From: Bdellovibrio sp.
GTDB lineage: Bacteria; Bdellovibrionota; Bdellovibrionia; Bdellovibrionales; Bdellovibrionaceae
DNA length: 62,293 bases
NCBI GenBank assembly: GCA_043759945.1
Contig: JAYUPS010000333.1
Location: 1 to 62,293 of the forward strand
Direction of reading: 5' to 3'
The position numbers were made by a program, and so were the translations under genes. Shown here in pieces: positions 28,288-53,431 of this stretch. The notes beneath the pieces were generated by a model. It did no database searches and had not been told where the DNA came from. It saw only the letters and a program-made list of their open reading frames with translations. The first letter of the stretch is position 1. Every line of letters starts with the position of its first letter.

Positions 28288-28962
28288 TTAGGAACCTTTT
28301 GTCGGCACTTCAAAAACCTCAGGGCCGGCAACGGCAAAAATGCGTTGGTCTTTCTTCGGTTTGATCTCAAAACCCCCCGTCAAAGTTCCAAACGAAGGCA
28401 AAATCAGCGAGTTTTCACCCAGAACGAAGCACGGCAGCCGAAGACGGACAGAGCCCTCTCGAATTAGAACCACGGGATGAATGTGCCCGCAAATCTGAAA
28501 ACTGGATTCTTTCTGGTCAGGTTTAAAATGACCCGCTTCATGGCCGTGGGACATTCTAATTTTACCGATCTGATGATCTTCGGGCATCAATTCCAAAGGA
28601 TAATTTTTTAGTTCTGGGATGGAGCCCCGCTCATGATTTCCCAAAAGCAAATTGAACTCGGTCGAAGAGTGCTTTTGAAAAAAGTCTGTCAAATCCCGGT
28701 GGATATTTTCGGTCCAGCTGCTTTTGTGGTGAACCAAATCGCCCAAGATAAAGACGCGAGTGGCTTCGGTTTCATGAATTAAGCTAGAGATATTGGCAAG
28801 ATCTTGTTGGTGTTCACCCGACGGAAGAGGAACCCCCCACTGTTGAAAGCTCTCGGCTTTTCCCAAATGCACATCTGAAAATCCCAAGATCTTTTCCCGC
28901 GGCCAAAAAAAAGCTTTTTTAGAAAGAAGATGCAGGTCTTCATTTTGGACTGTGATTTTCAA
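28288..28962 (-). CDS. pdeM: ligase-associated DNA damage response metallophosphoesterase (PdeM/MPE)
   Basis: Calcineurin-like motifs are FSDVHLGK, ILGDLVHH, GNHE and GHIHP. It is the last gene of the ligase/helicase operon. Confidence 0.8.
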   Translation of the reverse strand: MKITVQNEDLHLLSKKAFFWPREKILGFSDVHLGKAESFQQWGVPLPSGEHQQDLANISSLIHETEATRVFILGDLVHHKSSWTENIHRDLTDFFQKHSSTEFNLLLGNHERGSIPELKNYPLELMPEDHQIGKIRMSHGHEAGHFKPDQKESSFQICGHIHPVVLIREGSVRLRLPCFVLGENSLILPSFGTLTGGFEIKPKKDQRIFAVAGPEVFEVPTKGS

Positions 28963-31378
28963 GGGACCCTTTCTCCCAGCCTTTTTTTAGACGGGCGACT
29001 TTGGCTTCTAAAGTTTCGTTCGACAAACGAACTCCCTGACCCATCGAAAAATAAAGTGGAAATCCCAATGGCGAAGGATAAGTGACTAACTTCCACTGAA
29101 CCTGCTGCTTTGACAATCGATCCAAAGTGGTGCGCATGCGTTCGCTTTCCAAGGACCCTTTGAGTACCTCCTCGAAACTTTGCCGGATGAGCAGGTTACC
29201 CGGCTCGTGCTTTCGAAAAACCTCGTAAAGCAGACTAGAACTAATTTGCATTTGTCGACCCGATTTGGGCGAGCCCGGATAGCCGCTAAATACCAATCCC
29301 GCAATCGCAGAGACTTCCCGAAACTTGCGTTGACTGAGAGAGCTGACTTCCAGGGAATCTTTTAGTTCAAGTTCGATGTTATCCGAGGAAAAAAAATCAT
29401 CATCAAAAAGTTCCTGAAAGTCGTAGTCTGCGGGCCCCAGGATCTCAAAACCGTATTCGTTGATCGCAAATGAAAAAGTTGCGGGCTGGCGCTGGCTAAA
29501 GCGATGCGCCCACAGTTGACTTAGACCTTCGTGCACAAGTCGCCCCTCAAAGGGATAAACAAACAAGTGACTGCCCTCTTTGGATTCCCATTTTTCAAGC
29601 AAAAGTGATTGCGGCTGCGGTACAGCGGAGCGTTGCCTTTGGGCTTCAAACAAGGGGGCGAGCAATCCTTGGGTTTCTTGGGATCGTTCGCCGATAACTT
29701 CCCGCAGAGAACGACTTAAGGTCTCGGACATGGGAAGCAGTCCTCCGTCCCACGAAGGAATAGTGTTCGTTGGGCGGTTGGTGAGCTTTACGTAAGCCGT
29801 CATATCTTTAATCATGATAAGTTCTAATTTTCGACCACCAAACTGGAACACATCACCCCGCTTCATGCGCGAAATGAAATTTTCCTCCACGGAACCCAGC
29901 TTTTTTTGGTTTTGAAATGCCAAGCGCACCGATTCACGAGAAACTATTGTACCAATCGACATCCGATGCAAAGTCGCCAAACGACGATTGCTCAATCGAT
30001 AGTACCCGGTTTCTTGATCGTAGGAAATCTTATGAAACTGCGGATAGGCTTTAAGAGTTTCACCGCCCTTGGTTAGAAATTGCAAACACCACTGCAGTTC
30101 CTTTTCGGTAATTTCTGAAAATGAAAAGGTGGACTTTACGGCCTCTGTCAATTCATCCATGCGCAGTCCCGGACCACAAGCCAGCGTCGTCATATGTTGA
30201 AGTAAAACATCAATCGGCTTTTTCAGGGGATGGCGATTTTCAACGTGTCTTGCATCCAATGATTTTCGAACGGCCTCAAGTTCCAAGATCTCCCAGGAAT
30301 TTGTGGGCAGAAATAATAACTGACTGGTGCCGCCCGGACGATGTGCCGAACGACCCGCTCGCTGAATAAGCCGCGCCACCAGTTTCGGACTGCCGATTTG
30401 CACAACTTTTTCCACAGGCTGAAAATCGACTCCCAAATCCAAAGACGAGGTGCAAATAACCCATTTCAGGTCGCCATTGCGAATACCCTCTTCCACCATT
30501 TCACGGTCTTCGCGATCCAGAGAACTGTGGTGAATGGCGATAAGATCTTTCATATCGGGGCGGCTCTGAACAAAGGCCTCGTACCAACGCTCGGCTTGAG
30601 AACGGGTGTTTGCAAAGATAAGCGTCGATTCATCCGGATTGAGTGTCGCCAATAACTTGTCTTTGAGCGCAAAACCCAGGTGTCCTGCCCAGGGGAATCC
30701 ATCAATGCGGTCGGGAAGCAGGCATTCCATATCTAATTTTCGATCGGAACCGCCGGAAATAATTTTGGGACGAATCGTTGGACCAACTGCGACTTGGGCG
30801 GCTTCTTCAAGATTTCCAATGGATGCCGAAAGTGCGATCACTTGCAGTTCGGGATTTAAAAATCGCAGGTAAGACAAAGACAGTTCCAGCAGACTGCCTC
30901 TTTTACTGGAAAGAAGCTCATGCCATTCGTCCAAGATGACAACTTCGATCGTTTTTAAATAATTTTCAGCATCGATCTGCGAAATTAAGACCGCCAAAGA
31001 CTCTGGCGTCGTTAACAAAAGATCCGGAGGACTAAGAAGTTGTTTTTTCTTTGCCGAACCCTTGGTGTCTCCGGTTCGCGATTCGATCTTGATAGACCAG
31101 CCCTCTTGCTCGATGGGTTCCCGAATCGCATGCTCTATGTCCCGCGTCAGCGCCCGCAAGGGTGTTAGATACAACGCTTTAAGCCCCTTTTTTGGTTTTG
31201 CTAAAAATCGCGCCAGGGGGCCCAAGACCGCGGCATAAGTTTTCCCGCTTCCTGTCGGCACATGCAGCAGTGTCGATTCACCATCAAGAAAAGCATTCCA
31301 AGCTTCTTCTTGAAACGGGAAGGGTTTCCATTTTCGGCTTTTAAAAAACTTTTGGATCGGTAGAAGTTCTGCTCTCAC
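28940..31378 (-). CDS. ligase-associated DNA damage response DEXH-box helicase (Lhr-core-like)
   Basis: 812 aa. Motifs are PTGSGKT (Walker A), ILDEWHEL (DExH) and QRAGRSAHR (motif VI). Confidence 0.85.
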   Translation of the reverse strand: MRAELLPIQKFFKSRKWKPFPFQEEAWNAFLDGESTLLHVPTGSGKTYAAVLGPLARFLAKPKKGLKALYLTPLRALTRDIEHAIREPIEQEGWSIKIESRTGDTKGSAKKKQLLSPPDLLLTTPESLAVLISQIDAENYLKTIEVVILDEWHELLSSKRGSLLELSLSYLRFLNPELQVIALSASIGNLEEAAQVAVGPTIRPKIISGGSDRKLDMECLLPDRIDGFPWAGHLGFALKDKLLATLNPDESTLIFANTRSQAERWYEAFVQSRPDMKDLIAIHHSSLDREDREMVEEGIRNGDLKWVICTSSLDLGVDFQPVEKVVQIGSPKLVARLIQRAGRSAHRPGGTSQLLFLPTNSWEILELEAVRKSLDARHVENRHPLKKPIDVLLQHMTTLACGPGLRMDELTEAVKSTFSFSEITEKELQWCLQFLTKGGETLKAYPQFHKISYDQETGYYRLSNRRLATLHRMSIGTIVSRESVRLAFQNQKKLGSVEENFISRMKRGDVFQFGGRKLELIMIKDMTAYVKLTNRPTNTIPSWDGGLLPMSETLSRSLREVIGERSQETQGLLAPLFEAQRQRSAVPQPQSLLLEKWESKEGSHLFVYPFEGRLVHEGLSQLWAHRFSQRQPATFSFAINEYGFEILGPADYDFQELFDDDFFSSDNIELELKDSLEVSSLSQRKFREVSAIAGLVFSGYPGSPKSGRQMQISSSLLYEVFRKHEPGNLLIRQSFEEVLKGSLESERMRTTLDRLSKQQVQWKLVTYPSPLGFPLYFSMGQGVRLSNETLEAKVARLKKGWEKGSLENHSPK

Positions 31379-33057
31379 CGGAACTCACTTTTTTGAATTA
31401 CGCCGGCGGCGGCGTTGAGCAAATGCATCGCCGTCTGCAAAGTATCGGCGTCTTCGACCTTCTTATCTTTACGCCAACGTAAAATGCGCGGAAAACGCAC
31501 CGCTATTCCCGATTTATGACGCTTTGACGCCAAGATGCCCTCAAATGCGATTTCAAAAACATGATGGGGTTGAAGACTGCGCACGGGACCAAATTTTTCT
31601 TTCGTGTGCCTGCGAATCCAAGCATCCAATTCATCGATTTCCGCCTGATTAAGCCCCGAATACGCTTTGGCAAAAGGAACCAGCTGCCGTTCGTTTTTTT
31701 CATTTTCTGCGGACCACAAAGCAAAGGTGTAATCTGTGTACAGGTTCGCGCGACGGCCCGTCCCCGCCTGGGCATAGATAAGAGCGGCATCCAAGGTCAA
31801 GGGATCTACTTTGTGTTTCCACCAAGCTCCCGTTTTTCGCCCAACACTGTAATTGCTCTCCCAGTCTTTGAGCATGAGCCCTTCGGCGTCCGTTTCTCTA
31901 GACTGGGCTCTCAAGGCCTCTAAGTCTTCTAAACTTTCTGCTTTTAAAATTGGAGACACCAGAAAATGATCGCTCACTAAGGGCTGGCAAAGTTCGTTCA
32001 AGTGCATTTTGCGCGCTCTCAGTGACTTTTGGCGGATGTCTTGGCCCTGATATTCCAAACAATCATAGGCCATGAATCCCGCAGGATAATCTTTCAATGT
32101 GGTTGGCGAAACTTTCTTTCGCCCCAATCGTTTTTGCAAAGCTTGAAAAGGTTGAATCCGCCCGTCTTTGATAATCAAAATCTCGCCATCCAGAACACTA
32201 CCCGCCGGAAGTTTTTCAAATAAGCCCACCAAGTCTGGAAAAGATCTTTTGATTTCCTCTTCGCCGCGAGACCAAATCCAAAGATTTTCCTTTCCTTGAT
32301 CCTCCCGCTTTATGGCTTGCGATCGGATACCGTCGTATTTCCATTCAATCGCCCAGGTCGCGGGATTCCAATCTTTTTGGGATCGATCTGTCCAGGCATG
32401 AGCTAAACAAAACGGATAAGGTTGGCTCGGAACAAATTCAATCGTCCCCGGGCTGATGAGTCTTTCAAAATTTTCGCCGCCGGGGGCAACTTGGCCGGTC
32501 AACCGATGCGCCACCAGATCTGTCGGCACTCCAAAAACATCAGCGAGCGCGCGGACAACCAGTCTTTCACTGACTCCGACCCGAAAACCGCCGGTCATTA
32601 ATTTACTAAGAACAAATATTTCCGAGGGCAAAAGCTGCTTCCAGTATTCAAGAAGCTTCTGTGATTTCTGGTTCACATCTTCAATTTCGGCGATTTGGGG
32701 GATTTCAGTTTCCATCCATTCACTCAAAGTTTTATCAACTAAGTTGGTATTCTTATCTCCCTCTTTTTTGGTAAGCCCTTGGGACTGCAAGAGCAAGCTC
32801 ACGGTCTCTGCGGTATCGCCGACCTGCGAATAACTTTCCTCGAAGAGCCAGTCGGGGTAATTGGTGGCTTTCAAAAACAGCTCCCGAACGGATCTCGAGG
32901 TCAAAACTCGCTTCGAAACCCGAGACGTTAAAATTAATACCGCCCACATCGCATCCTGAGAATTTGTTTGTGCAAAATACTTTTTCAGAACGTCTATCTT
33001 TTCATTTGTCGAAGTCGTGGCGTCAACATTTTCGAAAAGCTGGGTAAAGGCCTTCAC
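31375..33057 (-). CDS. ATP-dependent DNA ligase
   Basis: 560 aa. The adenylation motif is EWKYDGIRSQ. Motifs EGLMLK and WWKHK are also present. It has 4-nt overlaps with both neighbours. Confidence 0.85.
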   Translation of the reverse strand: MKAFTQLFENVDATTSTNEKIDVLKKYFAQTNSQDAMWAVLILTSRVSKRVLTSRSVRELFLKATNYPDWLFEESYSQVGDTAETVSLLLQSQGLTKKEGDKNTNLVDKTLSEWMETEIPQIAEIEDVNQKSQKLLEYWKQLLPSEIFVLSKLMTGGFRVGVSERLVVRALADVFGVPTDLVAHRLTGQVAPGGENFERLISPGTIEFVPSQPYPFCLAHAWTDRSQKDWNPATWAIEWKYDGIRSQAIKREDQGKENLWIWSRGEEEIKRSFPDLVGLFEKLPAGSVLDGEILIIKDGRIQPFQALQKRLGRKKVSPTTLKDYPAGFMAYDCLEYQGQDIRQKSLRARKMHLNELCQPLVSDHFLVSPILKAESLEDLEALRAQSRETDAEGLMLKDWESNYSVGRKTGAWWKHKVDPLTLDAALIYAQAGTGRRANLYTDYTFALWSAENEKNERQLVPFAKAYSGLNQAEIDELDAWIRRHTKEKFGPVRSLQPHHVFEIAFEGILASKRHKSGIAVRFPRILRWRKDKKVEDADTLQTAMHLLNAAAGVIQKSEFR

Positions 33058-34091
33058 ACGCTGACCCCTTCGGTGTCCTGATATTCTGTCTCGAACAAAC
33101 GAACATCCAAATTTTTCTCTTTAAGATAGCGCTCTAGCACATCCGTCTTACCATGAGTCAAAAAGATGGTTTTTGCGCCCGTTTGTTCGATGGTTAAATT
33201 TAGCTCGGCCCAGTCGGCATGATCTGAAAGCACGAACCCTTTTTCGTAGCCTTTACGTCGACGGGCTCCGCGCACTTGCATCCATCCCGACGCAAACGCC
33301 GTTTGTGGAAGTTTAAATCTTTTCATCCAGGTTGAACGGTGGGCCGAGGGTGGAGCTAAGATCAATTGACCCTTAAAATCAGTTGTTTTGTCGGTTTCCG
33401 CAATGGGGATTGTGGGAAGCATCCGCACACCCTGCTCGCGATAAATTTCCGTCAAAGTTTGAATCGCTCCATGCAGGTAAACAGATTGTCTTGTCAGGGG
33501 CGCGAGTTCCGCTAAAATTCGTTGAGCTTTTCCCAGGGCATAACAAAATAAGATCGAGGGTCTGTCGGGATCGGACTGCCACCATTCAAATATTTTCCTG
33601 CCGGTAACATCGCCTGGCTCCCATTGGTAAATCGGCAGGGCAAAGGTTGCTTCGGAAACAAAAGTATCGCACTTCACCACTTCAAATGGGTCACAGCTTG
33701 GATCTGGAGTTCTTTTGTAATCACCCGATAGAACCCAAACCTGGCCCTGGTGTTCGATCCGAACTTGCGAAGATCCCAGAATGTGCCCAGCGGGATGAAA
33801 ACTGACGGTCGTTGCCCCCAGCTGAAATTTCTTTCCGTATGCATAGCCTTGAATATTAATGTTCGCACCCAATCGGTGATAAAGCAGCGGAACGCATTTC
33901 TGACTTGAGTAGTAGTTTTTCGATCCCACGCGCGCATGGTCGGAATGCCCATGAGTGATCACAGCCACATCCACGGGTCGCCAAGGATCAATGTAGAAAT
34001 CCCCGGCCTGACAATAAAGGCCTTTCTTGGTGACCGTCACAAGATCTTTCATCAATTCTTTCATTGGGCCGGGTATAACATTATTCCCCAT
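33054..34091 (-). CDS. ligase-associated DNA damage response exonuclease (metallo-beta-lactamase / beta-CASP fold)
   Basis: MBL motif ITHGHSDH. The C-terminal LSDHAD is beta-CASP-like. It is the first gene of the operon. Confidence 0.8.
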   Translation of the reverse strand: MGNNVIPGPMKELMKDLVTVTKKGLYCQAGDFYIDPWRPVDVAVITHGHSDHARVGSKNYYSSQKCVPLLYHRLGANINIQGYAYGKKFQLGATTVSFHPAGHILGSSQVRIEHQGQVWVLSGDYKRTPDPSCDPFEVVKCDTFVSEATFALPIYQWEPGDVTGRKIFEWWQSDPDRPSILFCYALGKAQRILAELAPLTRQSVYLHGAIQTLTEIYREQGVRMLPTIPIAETDKTTDFKGQLILAPPSAHRSTWMKRFKLPQTAFASGWMQVRGARRRKGYEKGFVLSDHADWAELNLTIEQTGAKTIFLTHGKTDVLERYLKEKNLDVRLFETEYQDTEGVSV

Positions 34092-35220: not shown

Positions 35221-36264
35221 ATGAAAATTTCTCTTCGAAAAAAACTGTTTCAATCGGCAGCGGCTATTGGATTTGCGTTGGGCCTGACCGCAATTCCTTT
35301 GGTAGCAAAAACGGCAACACCCGACAAAGACATGAAAAAAGTTTTGGATCAACTGGCTTCTAAAAATGGAAAGCCAATTGAAACTTTATCCCCTGCTGAA
35401 GCCCGAATGCAGCCTTCTCCGGCCGATGCTGTGAAAGATATTTTGGTGAAAGAAAAAATGGAAAAAACTCCGCCACTAGCATCAGTGAATGACATTACCA
35501 TCACGGGTGCAGCCGGAAATATCTCCGCCAGGGTCTACACTCCCAAAGGCAAGGGCCCACTGCCAGTGGTGGTCTATTACCACGGCGGTGGATTTGTCAT
35601 TGCGACCAATGACACCTACGACGCGACCCCACGCTCGCTCGCCAGTCAATCCGGAGCAATTTTTATATCAGTTGAATATCGAAAAGCTCCCGAATCAAAA
35701 TTTCCTGCGGCTCACGACGATGCCTTTGCGGCTTACAAGTGGGTGCTGGCAAATGCGGCCACATTGGGTGGTGATTCTACGCGTGTGGCGGTTGCGGGAG
35801 AAAGTGCCGGTGGAAACCTGGCACTGAATGTGGCGATCAAAGCCCGAGACGAAAAGATTCAAACTCCCGTTTACTCGCTCCTGGTCTATCCCGTGGCCAG
35901 CAACGATTTGAATTCTGCGTCTTATAAAGAGCATGCTTCCGCCAAGCCTTTAAATAAACCAATGATGGAGTGGTTCGTAAAACAATACTTGGTCTCGCCG
36001 GATCAGGCGAAAGATCCACGCATCAATTTGGTGGCCGCAAACCTAAAGGGCCTGCCCGCGACAACAATTATCACGGCCGAAATTGATCCTTTGCAGGTTG
36101 ATGGAAGTCTTTTGGCAGATAAATTGAAACAAGCCGGAGTCAAAGTGAACTACAAGAATTACAAGGGCGTGACCCACGAGTTTTTCGGCATGGCCGCTTT
36201 GGTGGATGATGCAGAAGAAGCGCAAGAGTACGCGGTCTCTGATCTAAAAAAATCTTTCAAATAG
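35221..36264 (+). CDS. secreted alpha/beta hydrolase, hormone-sensitive-lipase-type esterase
   Basis: Signal peptide present. The oxyanion motif is YYHGGGF, the nucleophile elbow is GESAGGN, and a C-terminal His lies in GVTHEF. Confidence 0.8.
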   Translation: MKISLRKKLFQSAAAIGFALGLTAIPLVAKTATPDKDMKKVLDQLASKNGKPIETLSPAEARMQPSPADAVKDILVKEKMEKTPPLASVNDITITGAAGNISARVYTPKGKGPLPVVVYYHGGGFVIATNDTYDATPRSLASQSGAIFISVEYRKAPESKFPAAHDDAFAAYKWVLANAATLGGDSTRVAVAGESAGGNLALNVAIKARDEKIQTPVYSLLVYPVASNDLNSASYKEHASAKPLNKPMMEWFVKQYLVSPDQAKDPRINLVAANLKGLPATTIITAEIDPLQVDGSLLADKLKQAGVKVNYKNYKGVTHEFFGMAALVDDAEEAQEYAVSDLKKSFK

Positions 36265-37672
36265 ATTCTTCTAATTTAGCGGCTAATTTCAAATCCTCGA
36301 CCAAATCGCGCAAGCGTTGGTCGAGCTCTTCTTGGTTGAAAGAACGTAAAATCGCAGCGGGATGCCAAGAGATAATTACTGATTTCGCGTAGGGATTATC
36401 TTTGATAATTTTCCCGCGTTCGCTGCCAATTTTCGGTAACCGCCCCAGAACGCTCGTGGCCGCAGTTATCCCGAGGGCTACAATAATATCGGGTTTCACG
36501 TGATTGATTTCGGCTTCGAGCCACGGTCGACAGGCATGCATCTCGGTGCCCGTGGGTTTTTGATGAATACGAGCTTTGCTGGACCCTTCCGCGGGGCGCC
36601 CTTCCGCGGGGCGCCACTTGAAATGCTTAACTGCGTTTGTTAGGTAGACGCTTTCGCGATTTAAGCCGGCTTGGCTGAAAGCCCGATTGAGCATTTCCCC
36701 GGCGGGCCCCACAAACAGTCGGCCGCTCAAGTCCTCTTGGTCGCCGGGTTGTTCTCCGACAATAAAAATTCTTGCGTCTTCGGGACCCTCGCCAAAAACA
36801 GTTTGGGTTGCGTGGCTGTAGAGCGGACAGGCCGTGCAGACTTTGGCGGCCTGTTTTAAAACTTGGAGACTCTTTGTGTCAGGCACTTTGGCTTGGATAT
36901 TTTGTTTTTTTGCCATCTCTTGCAATCTTTGTGGCGCTTGGCGCACAAGTTCCTGCATGATCTCGATCTCTGGCAGGCTCTCCCAATACTTTGGAGCCAT
37001 TTCCGCTCTCATAGCCTTGATTTTAATACGGGCCGGATTAAAAATTGAGGCGTAATAGGATTTCCACAACTCGTCGAAATCATCTTTGAACTTGAATTGA
37101 TTTTGGGGAATTCCCTCGGAGAAAGTAAGTCTCATTCCATCCCAATGGGCGGAACTGTCAGGGGTAAAGATCGACCAGGGTTTATCACCGAAACGACGAA
37201 CAAAAAATTGAGCGCCCTCTTCGAGACAGGGATGCTCGGGGCGATGCCAAGCGACGTAGCGCTGTTCACCCTGCCATTCGACTTCTTTAAACCGAACAAA
37301 GGCATGCATTTTATGAAGATCCCGCTTTACTGATTTGTACAAATCATTGAATTTCAAAATGTCGGAATCAATCAAGATATTTAAAAGTTCGGGTTCGTCA
37401 TTTTGCAGTCGAAACAAGATTCGATAAAGCAAAGCCCACTTGCCATCGTCTCGACTTAAGGAAACAAACCGGGCGGCCTTTAAAAATTCCGGCGGGACCG
37501 TGGGACTTTTCTTTATTGGCACGACCGGCTCTGAGATCTGCATCGAAAAAAGATTTAAAGACTCGCTGGCTTCGCTCCACTGAATATGCTCCGGCTCTAT
37601 CCCCGCGATCAAAAGTCGGCGTGCTTCAACCCTCCAACTTTTAAAATGGGGCTCAAACTGAGCGGTAATCAT
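36257..37672 (-). CDS. DUF4130 domain fused to a family-4 / UdgX-like uracil-DNA glycosylase domain (partner of the DNA modification/repair radical SAM protein)
   Basis: 471 aa. The C-terminal half has CTACPL (Fe-S Cys), VGEQPGDQED (motif A), NAVKHFKW...KARIHQKP...ACRPW and SWHPAAILR (motif B). There is a 4-nt overlap with the upstream radical SAM gene. Confidence 0.75.
   Translation of the reverse strand: MITAQFEPHFKSWRVEARRLLIAGIEPEHIQWSEASESLNLFSMQISEPVVPIKKSPTVPPEFLKAARFVSLSRDDGKWALLYRILFRLQNDEPELLNILIDSDILKFNDLYKSVKRDLHKMHAFVRFKEVEWQGEQRYVAWHRPEHPCLEEGAQFFVRRFGDKPWSIFTPDSSAHWDGMRLTFSEGIPQNQFKFKDDFDELWKSYYASIFNPARIKIKAMRAEMAPKYWESLPEIEIMQELVRQAPQRLQEMAKKQNIQAKVPDTKSLQVLKQAAKVCTACPLYSHATQTVFGEGPEDARIFIVGEQPGDQEDLSGRLFVGPAGEMLNRAFSQAGLNRESVYLTNAVKHFKWRPAEGRPAEGSSKARIHQKPTGTEMHACRPWLEAEINHVKPDIIVALGITAATSVLGRLPKIGSERGKIIKDNPYAKSVIISWHPAAILRSFNQEELDQRLRDLVEDLKLAAKLEESI
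36586..36615 (-). repeat. perfect 15-bp tandem duplication CTTCCGCGGGGCGCC x2 inside the glycosylase gene
   Basis: Read directly: 36586-36600 is identical to 36601-36615. It is in frame and encodes RPAEG-RPAEG. Confidence 0.95.
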
Positions 37673-38958
37673 AATTCTCCGTTAACCGCAGACTTGGTGA
37701 CGTCAAACAAAGTCAGCTGTTGCGCTTTGGGTTTCAACCGATTTTCCAAGGTGTCCGAATCAATCAATAGCAAATCCGCGTTGTGATCCGCAGTTTTTAT
37801 AAAAAATCGAGCGCGGTTCCACGCAATACGAAACTTTTTTAAGTCCTCGACGCGAAGCTTTCGATATTTCCGAACCAGGAGCATGCGGTCGACATTTCTT
37901 ACCCCAAATCCAGGCACCCTTAAAAGTTCTTCCCGTGAGCCGGTATTCACATCAACCGGAAAAAAACTGCGGTGCCCGATGGCCCATGCCGTCTTGGGAT
38001 CCAGCTCAAGAGATAAATTTTTATTTTTCTCGTCCGTCAGTTCCCCCGCCTTAAAATCATAGAACCGAATGAGCCAATCCGCTTGGTACAAACGATTTTC
38101 ACGAATCAGCGAAGGTTTCTCGACCGGAAGCAAAGCATCCGCATGGGGAATCGGACTGTAAGCCGAGTAATAGACGCGCTTTAATTTAAAGTCGTCGTAC
38201 AATTTTGACGAAGTCTCCAAAATACTTGCGTCCGTGCTTTCGGTAGCGCCCACGATCATTTGCGTGGTTTGACCGGCCGGCGCAAACTTCAAAACATTTT
38301 TAAATTTCTTTTGGTCTTCTTTGGTTTCGATAAGCTTTTCTTTGATCTGGCTCATTGTTGCTTCGGCGGCATCAATTGTTTTTGCCGGTGCCAAGCGATC
38401 CAGATCGGATTGCAGGGGCATTTCGATATTGGCGGAAATTCGATCAGCCCAGATCCCCGCTCGCTCGGTCAGCTCCTGGGATGAGCCGGCCACGACCTTG
38501 AGATGGATGTAACCGTTGAAGCGATGATCCTGGCGCAGGGATCTGGCCACTTCGATAAGCAGTTCCATGGTGCTGTCGGGGCTGTCGATAATCCCTGAGC
38601 TTAAAAATAATCCTTCGATATAATTTCGACGATAAAACTCAAGGGTCAGCCAAACGACTTCGGCCGGCGTAAATTTAGCTCGCTTGGTGTCACTCGAAAC
38701 GCGATTGATACAAAATTTGCAGTCATAAATGCAGTAATTGGTAAGCAGAATTTTTAAAAGCGAAACGCATCGGCCATCGGGTGTATAGCTGTGGCAAATT
38801 CCCATTCCTTCCACGTTGCCCATTCCGTTGGGATCACGGGTGCGCTTTGCGCCGCTGCTCGAACATGAGGCATCATATTTTGCGGCATCCGCTAAGATTT
38901 TCAATTTGGCTTGAACGGCGACGGCAGAGATGGTCGGCAGGCGTGCATTTTCATTCAT
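37669..38958 (-). CDS. putative DNA modification/repair radical SAM protein with C-terminal helix-hairpin-helix
   Basis: 429 aa. The CxxxCxxC cluster motif is CIYDCKFC. The HhH-like segment is ELLRVPGFGVRNVDRML. Confidence 0.8.
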   Translation of the reverse strand: MNENARLPTISAVAVQAKLKILADAAKYDASCSSSGAKRTRDPNGMGNVEGMGICHSYTPDGRCVSLLKILLTNYCIYDCKFCINRVSSDTKRAKFTPAEVVWLTLEFYRRNYIEGLFLSSGIIDSPDSTMELLIEVARSLRQDHRFNGYIHLKVVAGSSQELTERAGIWADRISANIEMPLQSDLDRLAPAKTIDAAEATMSQIKEKLIETKEDQKKFKNVLKFAPAGQTTQMIVGATESTDASILETSSKLYDDFKLKRVYYSAYSPIPHADALLPVEKPSLIRENRLYQADWLIRFYDFKAGELTDEKNKNLSLELDPKTAWAIGHRSFFPVDVNTGSREELLRVPGFGVRNVDRMLLVRKYRKLRVEDLKKFRIAWNRARFFIKTADHNADLLLIDSDTLENRLKPKAQQLTLFDVTKSAVNGEL

Positions 38959-38961
38959 AAC

Positions 38962-38978
38962 TTACATATAATTTACAT
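38962..38978 (-). promoter_or_regulatory. direct-repeat box TTACAT-ATAAT-TTACAT, 3 nt from the radical SAM start codon
   Basis: The plus strand reads TTACATATAATTTACAT. It is 16/17 identical to the box at 53415-53431. There is no SD between the box and the ATG at 38958. Confidence 0.5.
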
Positions 38979-39005: not shown

Positions 39006-39587
39006 TTAAATGATTTGAAATTGAATGGGTTTGCAATGACCGCCGTTGGTTCCCTCGTCCGAACAGGCGGTTAGACCTAAGACCAGGTCACGGCAGGCTT
39101 GGAGCACAACGTAGTCGCCCGCTTTCGAAGTCGGAGGCCGTATCTCGATCTTTCCGGACTGCTGAACCAAAACATTCATAAAAATATTGAAAGTCGCAGT
39201 GACCTGCCATTCCCCGATTCCAAATGGCTTAAGATTCTGGATTAAGTTTTCAGCACAGCTTGGATGATAGTCCTGACTTGGATTCATCATCTGAAACATC
39301 TGCCGGCTACAAGGGGTAACCAAAATATCGTGTTGCTCGCAGGTGTCTTCAACGATTTCCATAAGGTCGTTTCCGGAATGACCAAAAAGCTTGTGGCCTT
39401 GTCGCAGGTAAATGGTTTCATTGTAGTCAATAGTCCGCCCCGCAGAAAGTGAATCATTTAAATTTTGGGCGTCCGCACAAAACAGATCCGAGACCTGACG
39501 ACCCTCCACATCGATGACTTTCAACTTCTGACCTTGCTCGAGCCGAAAAGCTATTCCTTGCTGTGACTTAATCGTTTGAATACTCAT
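39006..39587 (-). CDS. DUF1989 (urea carboxylase-associated / carboxyguanidine deiminase-like) family protein
   Basis: The start at MSIQTIK (39587) overlaps the upstream stop (ATGA). Motifs are GQKLKVIDVEGRQVSDLF, EDTCEQHDILVTPC, NIFMNV and AGDYVVLQACRDLVLGLTAC. Confidence 0.7.
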   Translation of the reverse strand: MSIQTIKSQQGIAFRLEQGQKLKVIDVEGRQVSDLFCADAQNLNDSLSAGRTIDYNETIYLRQGHKLFGHSGNDLMEIVEDTCEQHDILVTPCSRQMFQMMNPSQDYHPSCAENLIQNLKPFGIGEWQVTATFNIFMNVLVQQSGKIEIRPPTSKAGDYVVLQACRDLVLGLTACSDEGTNGGHCKPIQFQII

Positions 39588-40237
39588 CTGAATTGAAAGG
39601 GACATTTCCAATGGTCCGGATTTACCTGACCAGAAAACTGAATTGCTTCCCGGGCATCATGGTGGCGTTCGACCATTGGATTGACACATCCCTGAAATTT
39701 AAAATCTCTTTCCCGGTTTGTTTCAATCATCGGGTGATACAAACCTTGGGAATCGAGCTGGCGAAATTGTTCGTACACATTAAAAATCAAAGCCGGCCAC
39801 GGGAACCGACGTGCTTTGCGAGAACTTTCGGGGTGCAATCCGACGACAAAAAAAGCCATGCCCTCGAGCGAAAAGCAAAAATTATGGTCCTCGGGATTGT
39901 TGCTAAAATCAGGATCTTTGTCGAACGTTTTGGTTTTTAGGCTAGTCAACGAAGAAAGTTCGCTCCAAAGTCGCGATTCAAACTGCGCTTCGTTCATTTC
40001 CCCTGAATTTTTAAACACTGCCCAGAAAGTAAAGTAAGGCGATTTGGTCTTCTGGTAGATAACTTTATAGGCCAATAGATCTTCCCGCAATTCGGGTCGT
40101 TGATACTTCTTCCCAAATTCATCATAAATTTTTAGCTGATAATCCTTTTTGTTAAAAGACCTTAGCGCCGCCACACAAGGATAATTCTTTTGCGAAAATA
40201 TTAAGTTGATCGCCGATTCGACTTGGTCATCCGCCAT
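39584..40237 (-). CDS. YqcI/YcgG family protein (family of the heme-dependent N-hydroxylase GntA)
   Basis: 217 aa. Motifs are NYPCVAALRSF, YFTFWAVF and MAFFVVGLHPESSRKARRFPWPALIFN. Confidence 0.7.
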   Translation of the reverse strand: MADDQVESAINLIFSQKNYPCVAALRSFNKKDYQLKIYDEFGKKYQRPELREDLLAYKVIYQKTKSPYFTFWAVFKNSGEMNEAQFESRLWSELSSLTSLKTKTFDKDPDFSNNPEDHNFCFSLEGMAFFVVGLHPESSRKARRFPWPALIFNVYEQFRQLDSQGLYHPMIETNRERDFKFQGCVNPMVERHHDAREAIQFSGQVNPDHWKCPFQFR

Positions 40238-51232: not shown

Positions 51233-53410
51233 TCATGAGATGGGGTCCGCTGTCATCTGATCCTTTGCCGGGGGCTCAATGCGTCTTCCGTTAATCATCA
51301 GAAGCAGCTGGGCTGCGGCCCGAGCATCGCACATCGCACGGTGATGTTGCTCCAGTTTAATATCAAAGTGACTCGTCAGATTTTTCAGGCTGTAAGAGGA
51401 AATTCCCGGAAAGTTTTTACGCATTCCGGCCACCGTGCACATCTGCGGACGAACATAATTTGAATCTAGTCTTTGGAATTCGCGCTGAATAAATCCGTAA
51501 TCAAACCTCACGTTGTGCGCGACAAAAATAGCGCCTTTGGTGAATTCCTGAAAACGATCTGCCACTTCGGCAAAAACCGGTGCGTTTTTTACCATTTCGT
51601 CATTGATTCCCGTGATCATCGTGATGTTGCGGGGAATCGGTCTTCCGGGATTTAGCAAAGTTTGAAACTCGTCGATAATTTCGCCGTTTTGGACTTTGAC
51701 CGCGCCGATTTCGGTACAACGGTGAAAACCTGAAGATCCCCCGGTGGTTTCTACGTCGACCACCACGTAAACTTGATTCGGATCCGTTTGCCAGCGCACT
51801 TTTAGTATTTCAACTTCAAAACCCGCTTCGGTCAGTAGTCGCACTTTAGAAAGTTGTTTGGTGCGAAGACTGTCGCCTTCGGCTTTTACTTCGACAAAGG
51901 ACGGAATGCCCTGTTTCACAACCATCAGATCCGGGTAGCCGCTGTGGTAAGAACTAAATTTTTGAGCCATCGTCCGAAAGATCAATGCCAAGTTTTTTCC
52001 CTGCGAATTTCTTAAAAACTCGAGCACCGTCGTTAAAAGATTGGGATGCCACTGAAAAATATCGTTCAGTTTTCCGTAATGCTGGGTCACGGTTTTCAAA
52101 ATGTATTTTTCGGTATTTTTTAGGTCCGAGAGAAGCAAAAGCTTTTTCTCCACGTCTAATTTGTGATTATCGTAGAATTCAGGACCCACAAGATCACTGG
52201 GGGATCGTTCAAAGGGATTAAAAATTGCCGTCCCTTCGTTTTCGAAGAGTTCGTCCCAAAACAAAAGACCAAAAAGTCCCACCCACAAATAATTTTCGGT
52301 AAAATGAGCAGCAAAGCCTTGTTTCCGAAAGAAATCGCGAACGCCACGCTCTGGTTTCCTAAGGTAAAAATCACTCAAAGTCAGCTCTTTGGCATTCTGA
52401 AGAATCTCGGTTAGATAACCGACTTTTTTCTTGTCAAATTTGCGCGCTAAAAAATCTTCGGCAAACAACAGTTCTTCATCGCCGGCTGGTTCTTGAATTA
52501 TCGCATTCAAAAGTGCGCGGCATTCTTCTTTGCGGCTGAGTTTGTAAAGAAGTCGCGCTTGGCGCTCTTTTGCCGGTGGAGTCCGGCATTCTGCCAAAGC
52601 TTGCAGAGCAATTTCGGGATCTCTGATCTCGGATTGACTTGCGATGTCCAATAAAAGTTGATCCTTCAACGCCAACGCTGTTGGCTTCAAATCCTTTTGA
52701 ATCTTACAAAAGTTCAGAAGCTCACGGACTTGTTCGGAGTCTTTTAGCTCCTGAAAAGTTTCAACTTTGTGGGATAATTGATACTCGGTGTAAGCTTCTT
52801 CCAAAACTGAAAAGCGAGGCTTAAAATTAGTTTTCAAAGTGCTCGTTTTGCGAATGCCCAAATCCCGTAGGGTGTACAAGCCTAATGATTTCTGAATTCG
52901 TCCAAAATACAGAAAAAACAGGTAGTCGAGATCCGCACCCTTTTTTTGAACAACGATATCCTCCGCATTCGGCAAATGGGGCAGCAACAAAGACTCTAGA
53001 TTTGTTCTGGCAAAATCGATAATTTCTTCTCGGGATGCCGAGGACTTGACCTCGAACCCTGATTTCAGGAGCCAGGTTCGTAAATTTGATTTGGTCAGAA
53101 AATCCGGAAGCTGGGATTTGTCCTGTTCGGCGGGAACCGCGACGAAACTTTTGCTCTGCAGTTCCGCGATGCATTGGATCGGGTCTGCAATTTCCGAATA
53201 CTTCTTAAAAGACTTCAGACTAAAGATTTCGCCTTTGCGGTTGATCATGCGTACGAATATGCACTGTGCGTCTTCCGACAATTCCCGGAACTCCAACAAG
53301 AATTCCTTGTGTGCTTCCTGGAGAACAGGTTGATAATGTTCCTCAAGCACTTCGATCAGTTCAAAAAAGTGATCCAAATAGTATTTGGCGGACAAAATCG
53401 GAAGTGCCAT
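51233..53410 (-). CDS. FAN1-like VRR-NUC nuclease fused to a C-terminal DnaQ/epsilon-type 3'-5' exonuclease
   Basis: 725 aa. The N-terminus YYLDHFFELIEVLEEHY...FVRMINRKGEIF is FAN1-like. The SAP-like segment is LTKSNLRTWLLKSGF. The VRR-NUC core is GYPDLMVV...SFVEVKAEGDSLRTKQ. The DEDDh exonuclease motifs are VVVDVETTGG, FVAHNVRFDYGF and HHRAMCDARA. Confidence 0.75.
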   Translation of the reverse strand: MALPILSAKYYLDHFFELIEVLEEHYQPVLQEAHKEFLLEFRELSEDAQCIFVRMINRKGEIFSLKSFKKYSEIADPIQCIAELQSKSFVAVPAEQDKSQLPDFLTKSNLRTWLLKSGFEVKSSASREEIIDFARTNLESLLLPHLPNAEDIVVQKKGADLDYLFFLYFGRIQKSLGLYTLRDLGIRKTSTLKTNFKPRFSVLEEAYTEYQLSHKVETFQELKDSEQVRELLNFCKIQKDLKPTALALKDQLLLDIASQSEIRDPEIALQALAECRTPPAKERQARLLYKLSRKEECRALLNAIIQEPAGDEELLFAEDFLARKFDKKKVGYLTEILQNAKELTLSDFYLRKPERGVRDFFRKQGFAAHFTENYLWVGLFGLLFWDELFENEGTAIFNPFERSPSDLVGPEFYDNHKLDVEKKLLLLSDLKNTEKYILKTVTQHYGKLNDIFQWHPNLLTTVLEFLRNSQGKNLALIFRTMAQKFSSYHSGYPDLMVVKQGIPSFVEVKAEGDSLRTKQLSKVRLLTEAGFEVEILKVRWQTDPNQVYVVVDVETTGGSSGFHRCTEIGAVKVQNGEIIDEFQTLLNPGRPIPRNITMITGINDEMVKNAPVFAEVADRFQEFTKGAIFVAHNVRFDYGFIQREFQRLDSNYVRPQMCTVAGMRKNFPGISSYSLKNLTSHFDIKLEQHHRAMCDARAAAQLLLMINGRRIEPPAKDQMTADPIS

Positions 53411-53414
53411 TGAT

Positions 53415-53431
53415 TTACATATTATTTACAT
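53415..53431 (-). promoter_or_regulatory. direct-repeat box TTACAT-ATTAT-TTACAT, 4 nt from the FAN1-DnaQ start codon
   Basis: The plus strand reads TTACATATTATTTACAT. It is 16/17 identical to 38962-38978. It lies in the 36-bp divergent gap between 53410 (-) and 53447 (+). Confidence 0.5.

Follow-up and report, generated by a model that had tools for sequence, protein, structure and literature searches.

UdgX has found wide use in mapping uracil, in base editors, and in conjugating proteins to DNA. The Mycobacterium smegmatis protein (MSMEG_0265; Protein Data Bank (PDB) 6AIL, 6AJO, 6IOD, 8IIE) is a standalone uracil-DNA glycosylase (UDG) homologue of 209 aa. Roles have been assigned to its residues, including His109, the crosslinking nucleophile, and its physiological role is called unknown in the UdgX literature (PMC10359453). 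A UDG-based repair operon, COG4277-COG1573, is SOS-regulated in Verrucomicrobia, Alphaproteobacteria, and Bacteroidetes (PMC8565304), and a pair made up of a radical S-adenosylmethionine (SAM) gene and a TIGR03915 gene is under damage-response control in Acinetobacter (PMC12392091). DUF4130, radical SAM, and UDG were linked by the Aravind group in 2013 (PMC3765255). The operon described here lies in 62,293 nt of DNA from Bdellovibrio sp. (GCA_043759945.1, contig JAYUPS010000333.1, positions 1-62,293, forward strand; hereafter the window), part of the 2.9-Mb assembly of an uncultured Bdellovibrionaceae genome. It comprises a radical-SAM gene followed by a gene for a DUF4130 domain fused to a UdgX-family UDG (Table 1).

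The best overall explanation of this locus, and a probable one, is a coupled operon under SOS control, in which the UdgX domain would capture DNA covalently and the radical-SAM protein would be brought to the captured site. Compared with the COG4277-COG1573 operon, nothing essential differs: the three families, the gene order, and the damage-responsive regulation are the same. Compared with M. smegmatis UdgX, the setting differs: here the domain forms the C-terminal half of a fusion with DUF4130, encoded after a radical-SAM gene.

The UDG half is a true member of the UdgX family rather than a canonical family-4 enzyme of the GE(A/G)PG type. In a phmmer search of the PDB, chains of M. smegmatis UdgX came first (6ail, 6ajo, and 6iod; E 4e-51), with an end-to-end match of 46% identity over about 205 residues; family-4 UDGs followed only at 1e-28 or weaker. 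The original prediction, made from the bare sequence, had named three UdgX-like motifs (GEQPGDQED, KARIH, and HPAAILR) and had proposed that the loop histidine corresponds to UdgX His109. All three motifs are present and align on their UdgX counterparts, GEQPGDQED pairing with GEQPGDKED, and His370 falls on the His109 column, so the outcome that was to refute the prediction, a non-homologous histidine, did not arise. The remaining pairs (fusion/UdgX) are E307/E52, Q308/Q53, R368/R107, H437/H178, and R443/R184. Three invariant cysteines, C279, C282, and C381, align on the three cysteines of the M. smegmatis protein, and are the predicted ligands of an Fe-S cluster.

This set of residues is conserved in the family. 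An alignment of 79 fusion proteins shows no variation at E307, R368, H437, or R443, and at least 90% conservation at Q308 and H370. P438 and L442 of motif B are invariant as well, and its alanine and isoleucine, which depart from the pattern HPS(S/A)(L/V)(L/V)R, are variants common in the family. The family-4 UDGs of Thermus thermophilus (1UI0) and Thermotoga maritima (1L9G) share the fold, the Fe-S cysteines, the uracil-pocket Phe and Asn, and the motif B histidine. However, the domain here departs from the canonical family-4 signature in two respects: Q308 replaces A/G in motif A, and an extra R-loop, KARIH, carries the predicted nucleophilic histidine.

Structural comparison agrees. The AlphaFold 2 (AF2) model of the whole fusion has a predicted local distance difference test score (pLDDT) of 93.0 and a predicted template modelling score of 0.74. 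Foldseek aligns it to UdgX crystal structures with TM scores of 0.89-0.92 and root-mean-square deviations of 1.3-2.5 Å, and to family-4 UDGs with TM scores of 0.81-0.88 and deviations of 3.2-4.1 Å.

The two genes are closely joined. The original prediction had them overlapping by 4 nt, and both reading frames and their ATGA junction are confirmed; this overlap, together with the GGAG before the second ATG, is the usual sign of translational coupling. Its proposal of a DUF4130-UDG fusion is borne out by matches to TIGR03915 and TIGR03914 and to the Pfam DUF4130 and UDG families. With E-values of 1e-51 to 1e-171, a chance match is ruled out.

The DUF4130 domain is presumed to be the adaptor of the radical-SAM protein. 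In a 2026 preprint, AlphaFold 3 confidently predicts a complex of a DUF4130 protein with the radical-SAM protein encoded next to it (ipSAE 0.80); the preprint proposes that DUF4130 shapes nucleic-acid binding. (The Foldseek list for the fusion model is filled by UDG matches.)

Genomic association also links the two genes. A survey with a single genome for each prokaryotic species yielded 80 UdgX loci from at least nine phyla. Radical SAM, DUF4130, and UdgX follow one another on one strand in 25 of these loci, spanning seven phyla; in all but one of the 25, DUF4130 and UdgX share a single reading frame. Among the 80 loci, DUF4130 matches occurred solely where a radical-SAM match lay upstream. 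In the taxonomic order to which the window belongs, six of 41 related genomes have the fused form, and the radical-SAM gene occurs in those six and no others.

Databases list more than 8000 relatives of the fusion protein, those closest to it being Bdellovibrionaceae proteins. When the UDG half was searched exhaustively against 1.8 billion cluster representatives, 611 clusters matched at E ≤1e-30. Among the best 150 representatives, fused proteins number 72 and standalone ones 64; GEQPG is present in 138, and an xxRxH loop in 142. UdgX is fused to the presumed adaptor of a probably damage-inducible radical-SAM protein in about half of these best representatives and about a third of the sampled loci, with its catalytic residues unchanged.

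Are the fused and standalone domains different enzymes? A column-by-column comparison of cassette-linked and standalone UdgX found 63 positions conserved at ≥85% in both groups, the catalytic residues among them, and no discriminating columns beyond F/W and L/I preferences. Judged by its residues, the cassette-linked domain is the same enzyme as standalone UdgX. Since no residues distinguish the two, uracil excision with covalent capture is expected of the cassette-linked domain. (The idea that this domain reads another lesion was dropped for want of discriminating columns.)

The two contexts can coexist in one genome: the complete Bdellovibrio genome G009 contains both a standalone UdgX, in a 229-aa frame, and the fused cassette (C1:1690984-1691598 and C1:3472019-3472660). 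Neighbours of standalone UdgX, tallied over 55 loci, recur only weakly: response regulator genes at 10, imuB-like genes at five, and dnaE2-like genes at four. The imuB-like and dnaE2-like genes, within 4 kb of UdgX in loci L039, L085, and others, are another tie between UdgX and SOS mutagenesis.

Regulation forms the third part of the argument. A candidate LexA-type operator, TGTAAATTATATGTAAG, lies in a 47-nt spacer before the radical-SAM gene; it is a direct repeat with a period of 11 bp. The exact 17-mer has only two more copies in the 2.9-Mb assembly: one about 90 nt upstream of recA (C172:2948-2964), and one in the lexA promoter (C382:932-948). Chance would supply about 3e-4 per extra copy. 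In the lexA promoter (C382:914-948), the 17-mer abuts an inverted second copy, and the junction, TTACAGTGTAA, matches TTAC-N3-GTAA, the palindromic LexA box of B. bacteriovorus (quoted in PMC8565304).

The arrangement recurs in relatives. In genomes G009, G002, and G025, from three related genera, TGTAA-N6-TGTAA abuts the radical-SAM ATG, and further copies stand upstream of genes reading as dinB, imuA, imuB, an SRAP-type peptidase, and a ligase-associated exonuclease. Because the operator is shared with the recA and lexA promoters, the operon is very probably a member of this lineage's SOS regulon, with the shared sequence as the presumed site of LexA binding; this is in keeping with the SOS or damage-response control published for the pair in other phyla.

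These elements suggest a mechanism in four steps. DNA damage would derepress the operon. The UdgX domain would flip out and excise uracil, and His370, activated by E307, would attack the sugar C1' to form a stable protein-DNA bond. DUF4130 would hold the radical-SAM partner and bring it to the same DNA site; because the UdgX domain is fused to the partner's adaptor, capture would fix the radical-SAM protein there. Finally, this protein would act with a 5'-deoxyadenosyl radical on DNA at that site or close to it, either to process or resolve the histidine-sugar adduct or to repair a neighbouring lesion.

The steps are not equally secure. Uracil excision and covalent capture through His370, as in M. 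smegmatis UdgX, are likely, given conservation of the full catalytic set. Recruitment through DUF4130 is favoured somewhat less strongly, on the basis of the fusion, the strict co-occurrence, and the published AlphaFold 3 model. That the radical-SAM protein acts on the histidine-sugar adduct itself is conjecture, and doubtful. In the fullest version of this idea, uracil is excised, the abasic sugar is held covalently and shielded in single-stranded DNA at stalled forks, and the tethered radical-SAM protein abstracts a hydrogen from the sugar, by which the His-C1' adduct is released, converted, or repaired. This version is improbable. Were it true, a "suicide" glycosylase would be made catalytic, and the operon would represent a new radical-based route of base excision or DNA-protein crosslink repair.

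SRAP proteins (HMCES, YedK) offer a functional analogy only, as SOS-linked proteins that bond covalently to abasic sites. Their fold is unrelated, they form a thiazolidine through an N-terminal cysteine in contrast to the His-C1' bond of UdgX, and they excise no base. (An SRAP-like gene in G025, whose product starts MCFS, carries the same operator as the cassette.)

A number of points weigh against this reading of capture, coupling, and SOS control, and they touch each of its parts. For the UDG domain, covalent capture by fused members is extrapolated from a single protein, M. smegmatis UdgX. The second position of the R-loop is alanine here (KARIH) and arginine there (KRRIH). The loop before the R-loop is 8 residues longer than in the M. 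smegmatis protein and contains a 5-residue duplication, and confidence in the UDG model is lowest in this segment (block pLDDT 81-84). The protein also scores above the cut-off of TIGR00758, a broad model for the family-4 subfamily (134.5 bits against 125.3).

Together, the insertion and duplication could displace His370, and single substitutions of His109 convert UdgX to a turnover enzyme (PMC10359453). The domain might then be an ordinary turnover glycosylase of family-4 type, with UdgX-like motifs and no covalent capture. This is unlikely. His370, E307, Q308, and R368 are all retained and conserved family-wide; the TIGR03914 score (Table 1; 244.8 bits on a genome-level search) is far above that for family 4; the archaeal type-4 equivalog NF040953 fails (127.2 bits, cut-off 250); and the structural fit is better to UdgX. 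Moreover, close relatives have similarly long loops. The variable loop spans 6-16 residues among homologues, and because close relatives have non-repeated loops of nearly the same length, the RPAEG-bearing loop is no outlier; its standing as a unique insertion was rejected. (Logan contigs from two runs, probably of the same sample, show the duplication too.)

For the coupling, about 54 of the 80 UdgX loci are standalone, defined as having neither radical SAM nor DUF4130 within 8 kb. In a maximum-likelihood tree of the UDG domain, cassette and standalone contexts interleave: well-supported branches force at least four switches, and parsimony gives 11. UdgX therefore does not need a radical-SAM partner. 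Radical-SAM-DUF4130 pairs without any UDG also exist (2026 preprint; PMC12392091).

The main rival explanation takes these observations at face value. UdgX would handle uracil alone, the radical-SAM protein and DUF4130 would repair an unrelated lesion, and the fusion would only ensure their co-expression or co-localisation; the lack of specialised residues in cassette-linked domains fits this proposal too. However, the UDG is covalently fused to the predicted adaptor of the radical-SAM protein in 24 of the 25 cassette loci, the co-occurrence of radical SAM and fusion in the order is perfect (six of six), and a domain that crosslinks irreversibly would tie the entire complex to a single site, which fits poorly with free, independent action. 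Independence of the modules is the less likely reading, though one to be taken seriously. Because about two thirds of UdgX loci are standalone, the case for coupling covalent capture to radical-SAM chemistry is weakened; such coupling is plausible.

For SOS control, the operator is a direct repeat, in contrast to the palindromic B. bacteriovorus LexA box. The genome has 14 matches to TTAC-N3-GTAA; the only one of relevance sits in the lexA promoter, and the operon has none. The direct repeat also differs from the operators described in Alphaproteobacteria, Verrucomicrobia, and Bacteroidetes. Furthermore, the loose pattern TGTAA-N6-TGTAA is not enriched, with six found and seven expected in the genome, and two found and 2.7 expected in the window. 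The case for the operator thus rests on exact identity of the 17-mer and on its position.

For the radical-SAM protein, the fold gives no clue to substrate, its likeness to HydE, BioB, and LipA being distant. Base hypermodification or defence against phage can be considered in place of repair. "Modification" is left open by the NCBI name, DUF4130 has been suggested to modify thymines (PMC3765255), and the cassette is patchily distributed, in 6 of the 41 genomes of the order. Yet the operator is common to recA, lexA, dinB, and imuAB, and damage-response regulation has been published in several phyla. Searches of the PADLOC families found no match for either protein (E up to 0.01), so the anti-phage version was rejected; no restriction, methylase, or phage genes were found adjacent to the operon. 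A modification or anti-phage role is very unlikely.

The radical-SAM protein is a well-defined family member. It scores 570.8 bits against TIGR03916 (cut-off 343.5), and is 67-82% identical to its best 120 relatives, which are named likewise. As predicted originally, CIYDCKFC is present, and its three cysteines, C76, C80, and C83, are invariant among 45 homologues from several phyla. In all the protein has six cysteines; the other three, C32, C55, and C64, are invariant or nearly so in the same homologues, as is H56. Residues 32-62 have pLDDT below 50 in an AF2 model that otherwise shows a radical-SAM barrel (pLDDT 83.7 for the model). Poor modelling of such a segment is common for cluster-binding loops, and so a second metal cluster is possible, with C32, C55, and C64 as the putative site of an auxiliary Fe-S cluster.

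The closest solved folds are HydE, HydG, lipoyl synthase (LIAS), biotin synthase (BioB), viperin, and MiaB, at TM scores of about 0.4-0.5. The original prediction also placed a helix-hairpin-helix at the C terminus. The sequence LRVPGFGVRNV is there, and P349, G350, and G352 of its PGFG core are invariant in the 45 homologues, but HHH_3 matches only below threshold. Weak ComEA matches appeared in the PDB sequence search, and PF12836 is present in homologues P0325 and P0344.

This clade was labelled spore photoproduct lyase (SplB-like) by the Aravind group (PMC3765255). A PDB sequence search (E up to 1) and the top 50 Foldseek matches contained no spore photoproduct lyase; given that absence from the structural matches, the label is unsupported, and with neither sequence nor fold in its favour it was rejected. 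The likeness to SplB is that of a radical-SAM enzyme tied to DNA repair and the SOS response, whereas the three extra invariant cysteines and the putative C-terminal helix-hairpin-helix set the protein here apart.

How much of this is new? The original prediction implied that the link had gone unnoticed. In fact the pair is already named and published as SOS-regulated: the NCBIfam model names carry the link (rSAM_link_UDG, SAM_7_link_chp, "UdgX family"), and RefSeq names the Bdellovibrio homologues "UdgX family uracil-DNA binding protein". The gene set, the UdgX-family naming, and the SOS regulation are thus known from databases and papers. The implied novelty holds in one respect: none of the 8.4 million searchable papers joins "UdgX" with "radical SAM", and the gene context of UdgX (operon, fusion, neighbours) was not found in the UdgX biochemistry papers searched. 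New here are the exact 17-bp box at the operon, recA, and lexA; the box before the operon and SOS genes in relatives; and the lack of residues that tell cassette-linked from standalone domains.

The original prediction identified a real open question, not a new object, for the locus is a typical member of a known, uncharacterised family. By itself it adds little beyond a clear SOS-type operator for the Bdellovibrionales and the evidence that cassette and standalone forms are the same enzyme. The fusion context provides a concrete, testable setting for the role of UdgX, and for an uncharacterised but highly conserved radical-SAM clade.

Table 1. Features of the operon and its surroundings (positions in the window; domain scores in bits, with NCBIfam cut-offs).
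Feature	Position	Strand	Details
Candidate SOS (LexA-type) operator	38961-38977	-	TGTAAATTATATGTAAG; direct repeat TGTAA-N6-TGTAA, 17 bp; ends 2 nt before radical-SAM ATG
Radical-SAM gene	37669-38958	-	429 aa; TIGR03916
Segment with C32, C55, H56, and C64	38767-38865		Upstream of CX3CX2C
CIYDCKFC (CX3CX2C), binding the radical-SAM [4Fe-4S] cluster	38710-38733	-	Residues 76-83 (C76, C80, C83); from translation
Helix-hairpin-helix-like, putatively DNA-binding motif, LRVPGFGVRNV	37870-37959	-	Residues 334-363; HHH_3 E 0.023, below Pfam threshold
ATGA overlap, radical-SAM stop codon and fusion start codon	37669-37672	-	4 nt; GGAG 7 nt before second ATG
Fusion gene, DUF4130/TIGR03915 and UdgX-family UDG	36257-37672	-	471 aa
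DUF4130/TIGR03915 domain	36968-37657	-	Residues 6-235; 181.9 (cut-off 112.25); PF13566 E 3.4e-34
UdgX-family UDG domain	36284-36955	-	Residues 240-463; TIGR03914 242.9 (cut-off 189.95)
Motif A, GEQPG	36743-36757	-	G306-G310 (GEQPGDQED, 306-314); phmmer alignment to UdgX 51-55
Tandem duplication in variable loop before R-loop	36584-36613	-	CGCCCCGCGGAAGGG twice; exact, 15 nt, in frame, encoding RPAEG-RPAEG; Tandem Repeats Finder 2.1 copies, 100% match
R-loop, KARIH	36563-36577	-	K366-H370; aligned on KRRIH
Motif B, HPAAILR	36344-36364	-	H437-R443; aligned on HPSSLLR
Esterase gene, convergent	35221-36264		Overlaps 3' end of fusion gene by 8 nt
Ligase-associated DNA damage response cluster, complete	28288-34091	-	Exonuclease, ATP-dependent ligase, DEXH helicase, PdeM
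YqcI/YcgG-family and DUF1989/urea-amidolyase-associated-like genes	39006-40237	-	Overlapping pair
FAN1_HTH, VRR-NUC, and DnaQ/RNase T 3'-5' exonuclease protein	51233-53410	-	725 aa
Two-change variant of the operator box	53414-53430		Abuts start codon of 725-aa protein gene

The sequencing runs found were all DNA metagenomes. Logan contigs from two runs on sediment also contain the locus; these probably derive from the source sample and so are not independent. Elsewhere in the window, the 725-aa protein whose start codon abuts a variant box joins, to judge from its domains, a FAN1-like crosslink-repair nuclease to an exonuclease of the proofreading type. On the strand of the operon, 2.2 kb downstream, is the ligase-associated cluster. 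In the window it has no SOS-type box in front of it, although the exonuclease gene of relative G002 (L113) does. Immediately upstream of the operator, the overlapping YqcI/YcgG and DUF1989 pair appears unrelated to DNA repair; its YqcI/YcgG-family protein scores above the cut-off of the model for GntA, a heme-dependent N-hydroxylase.

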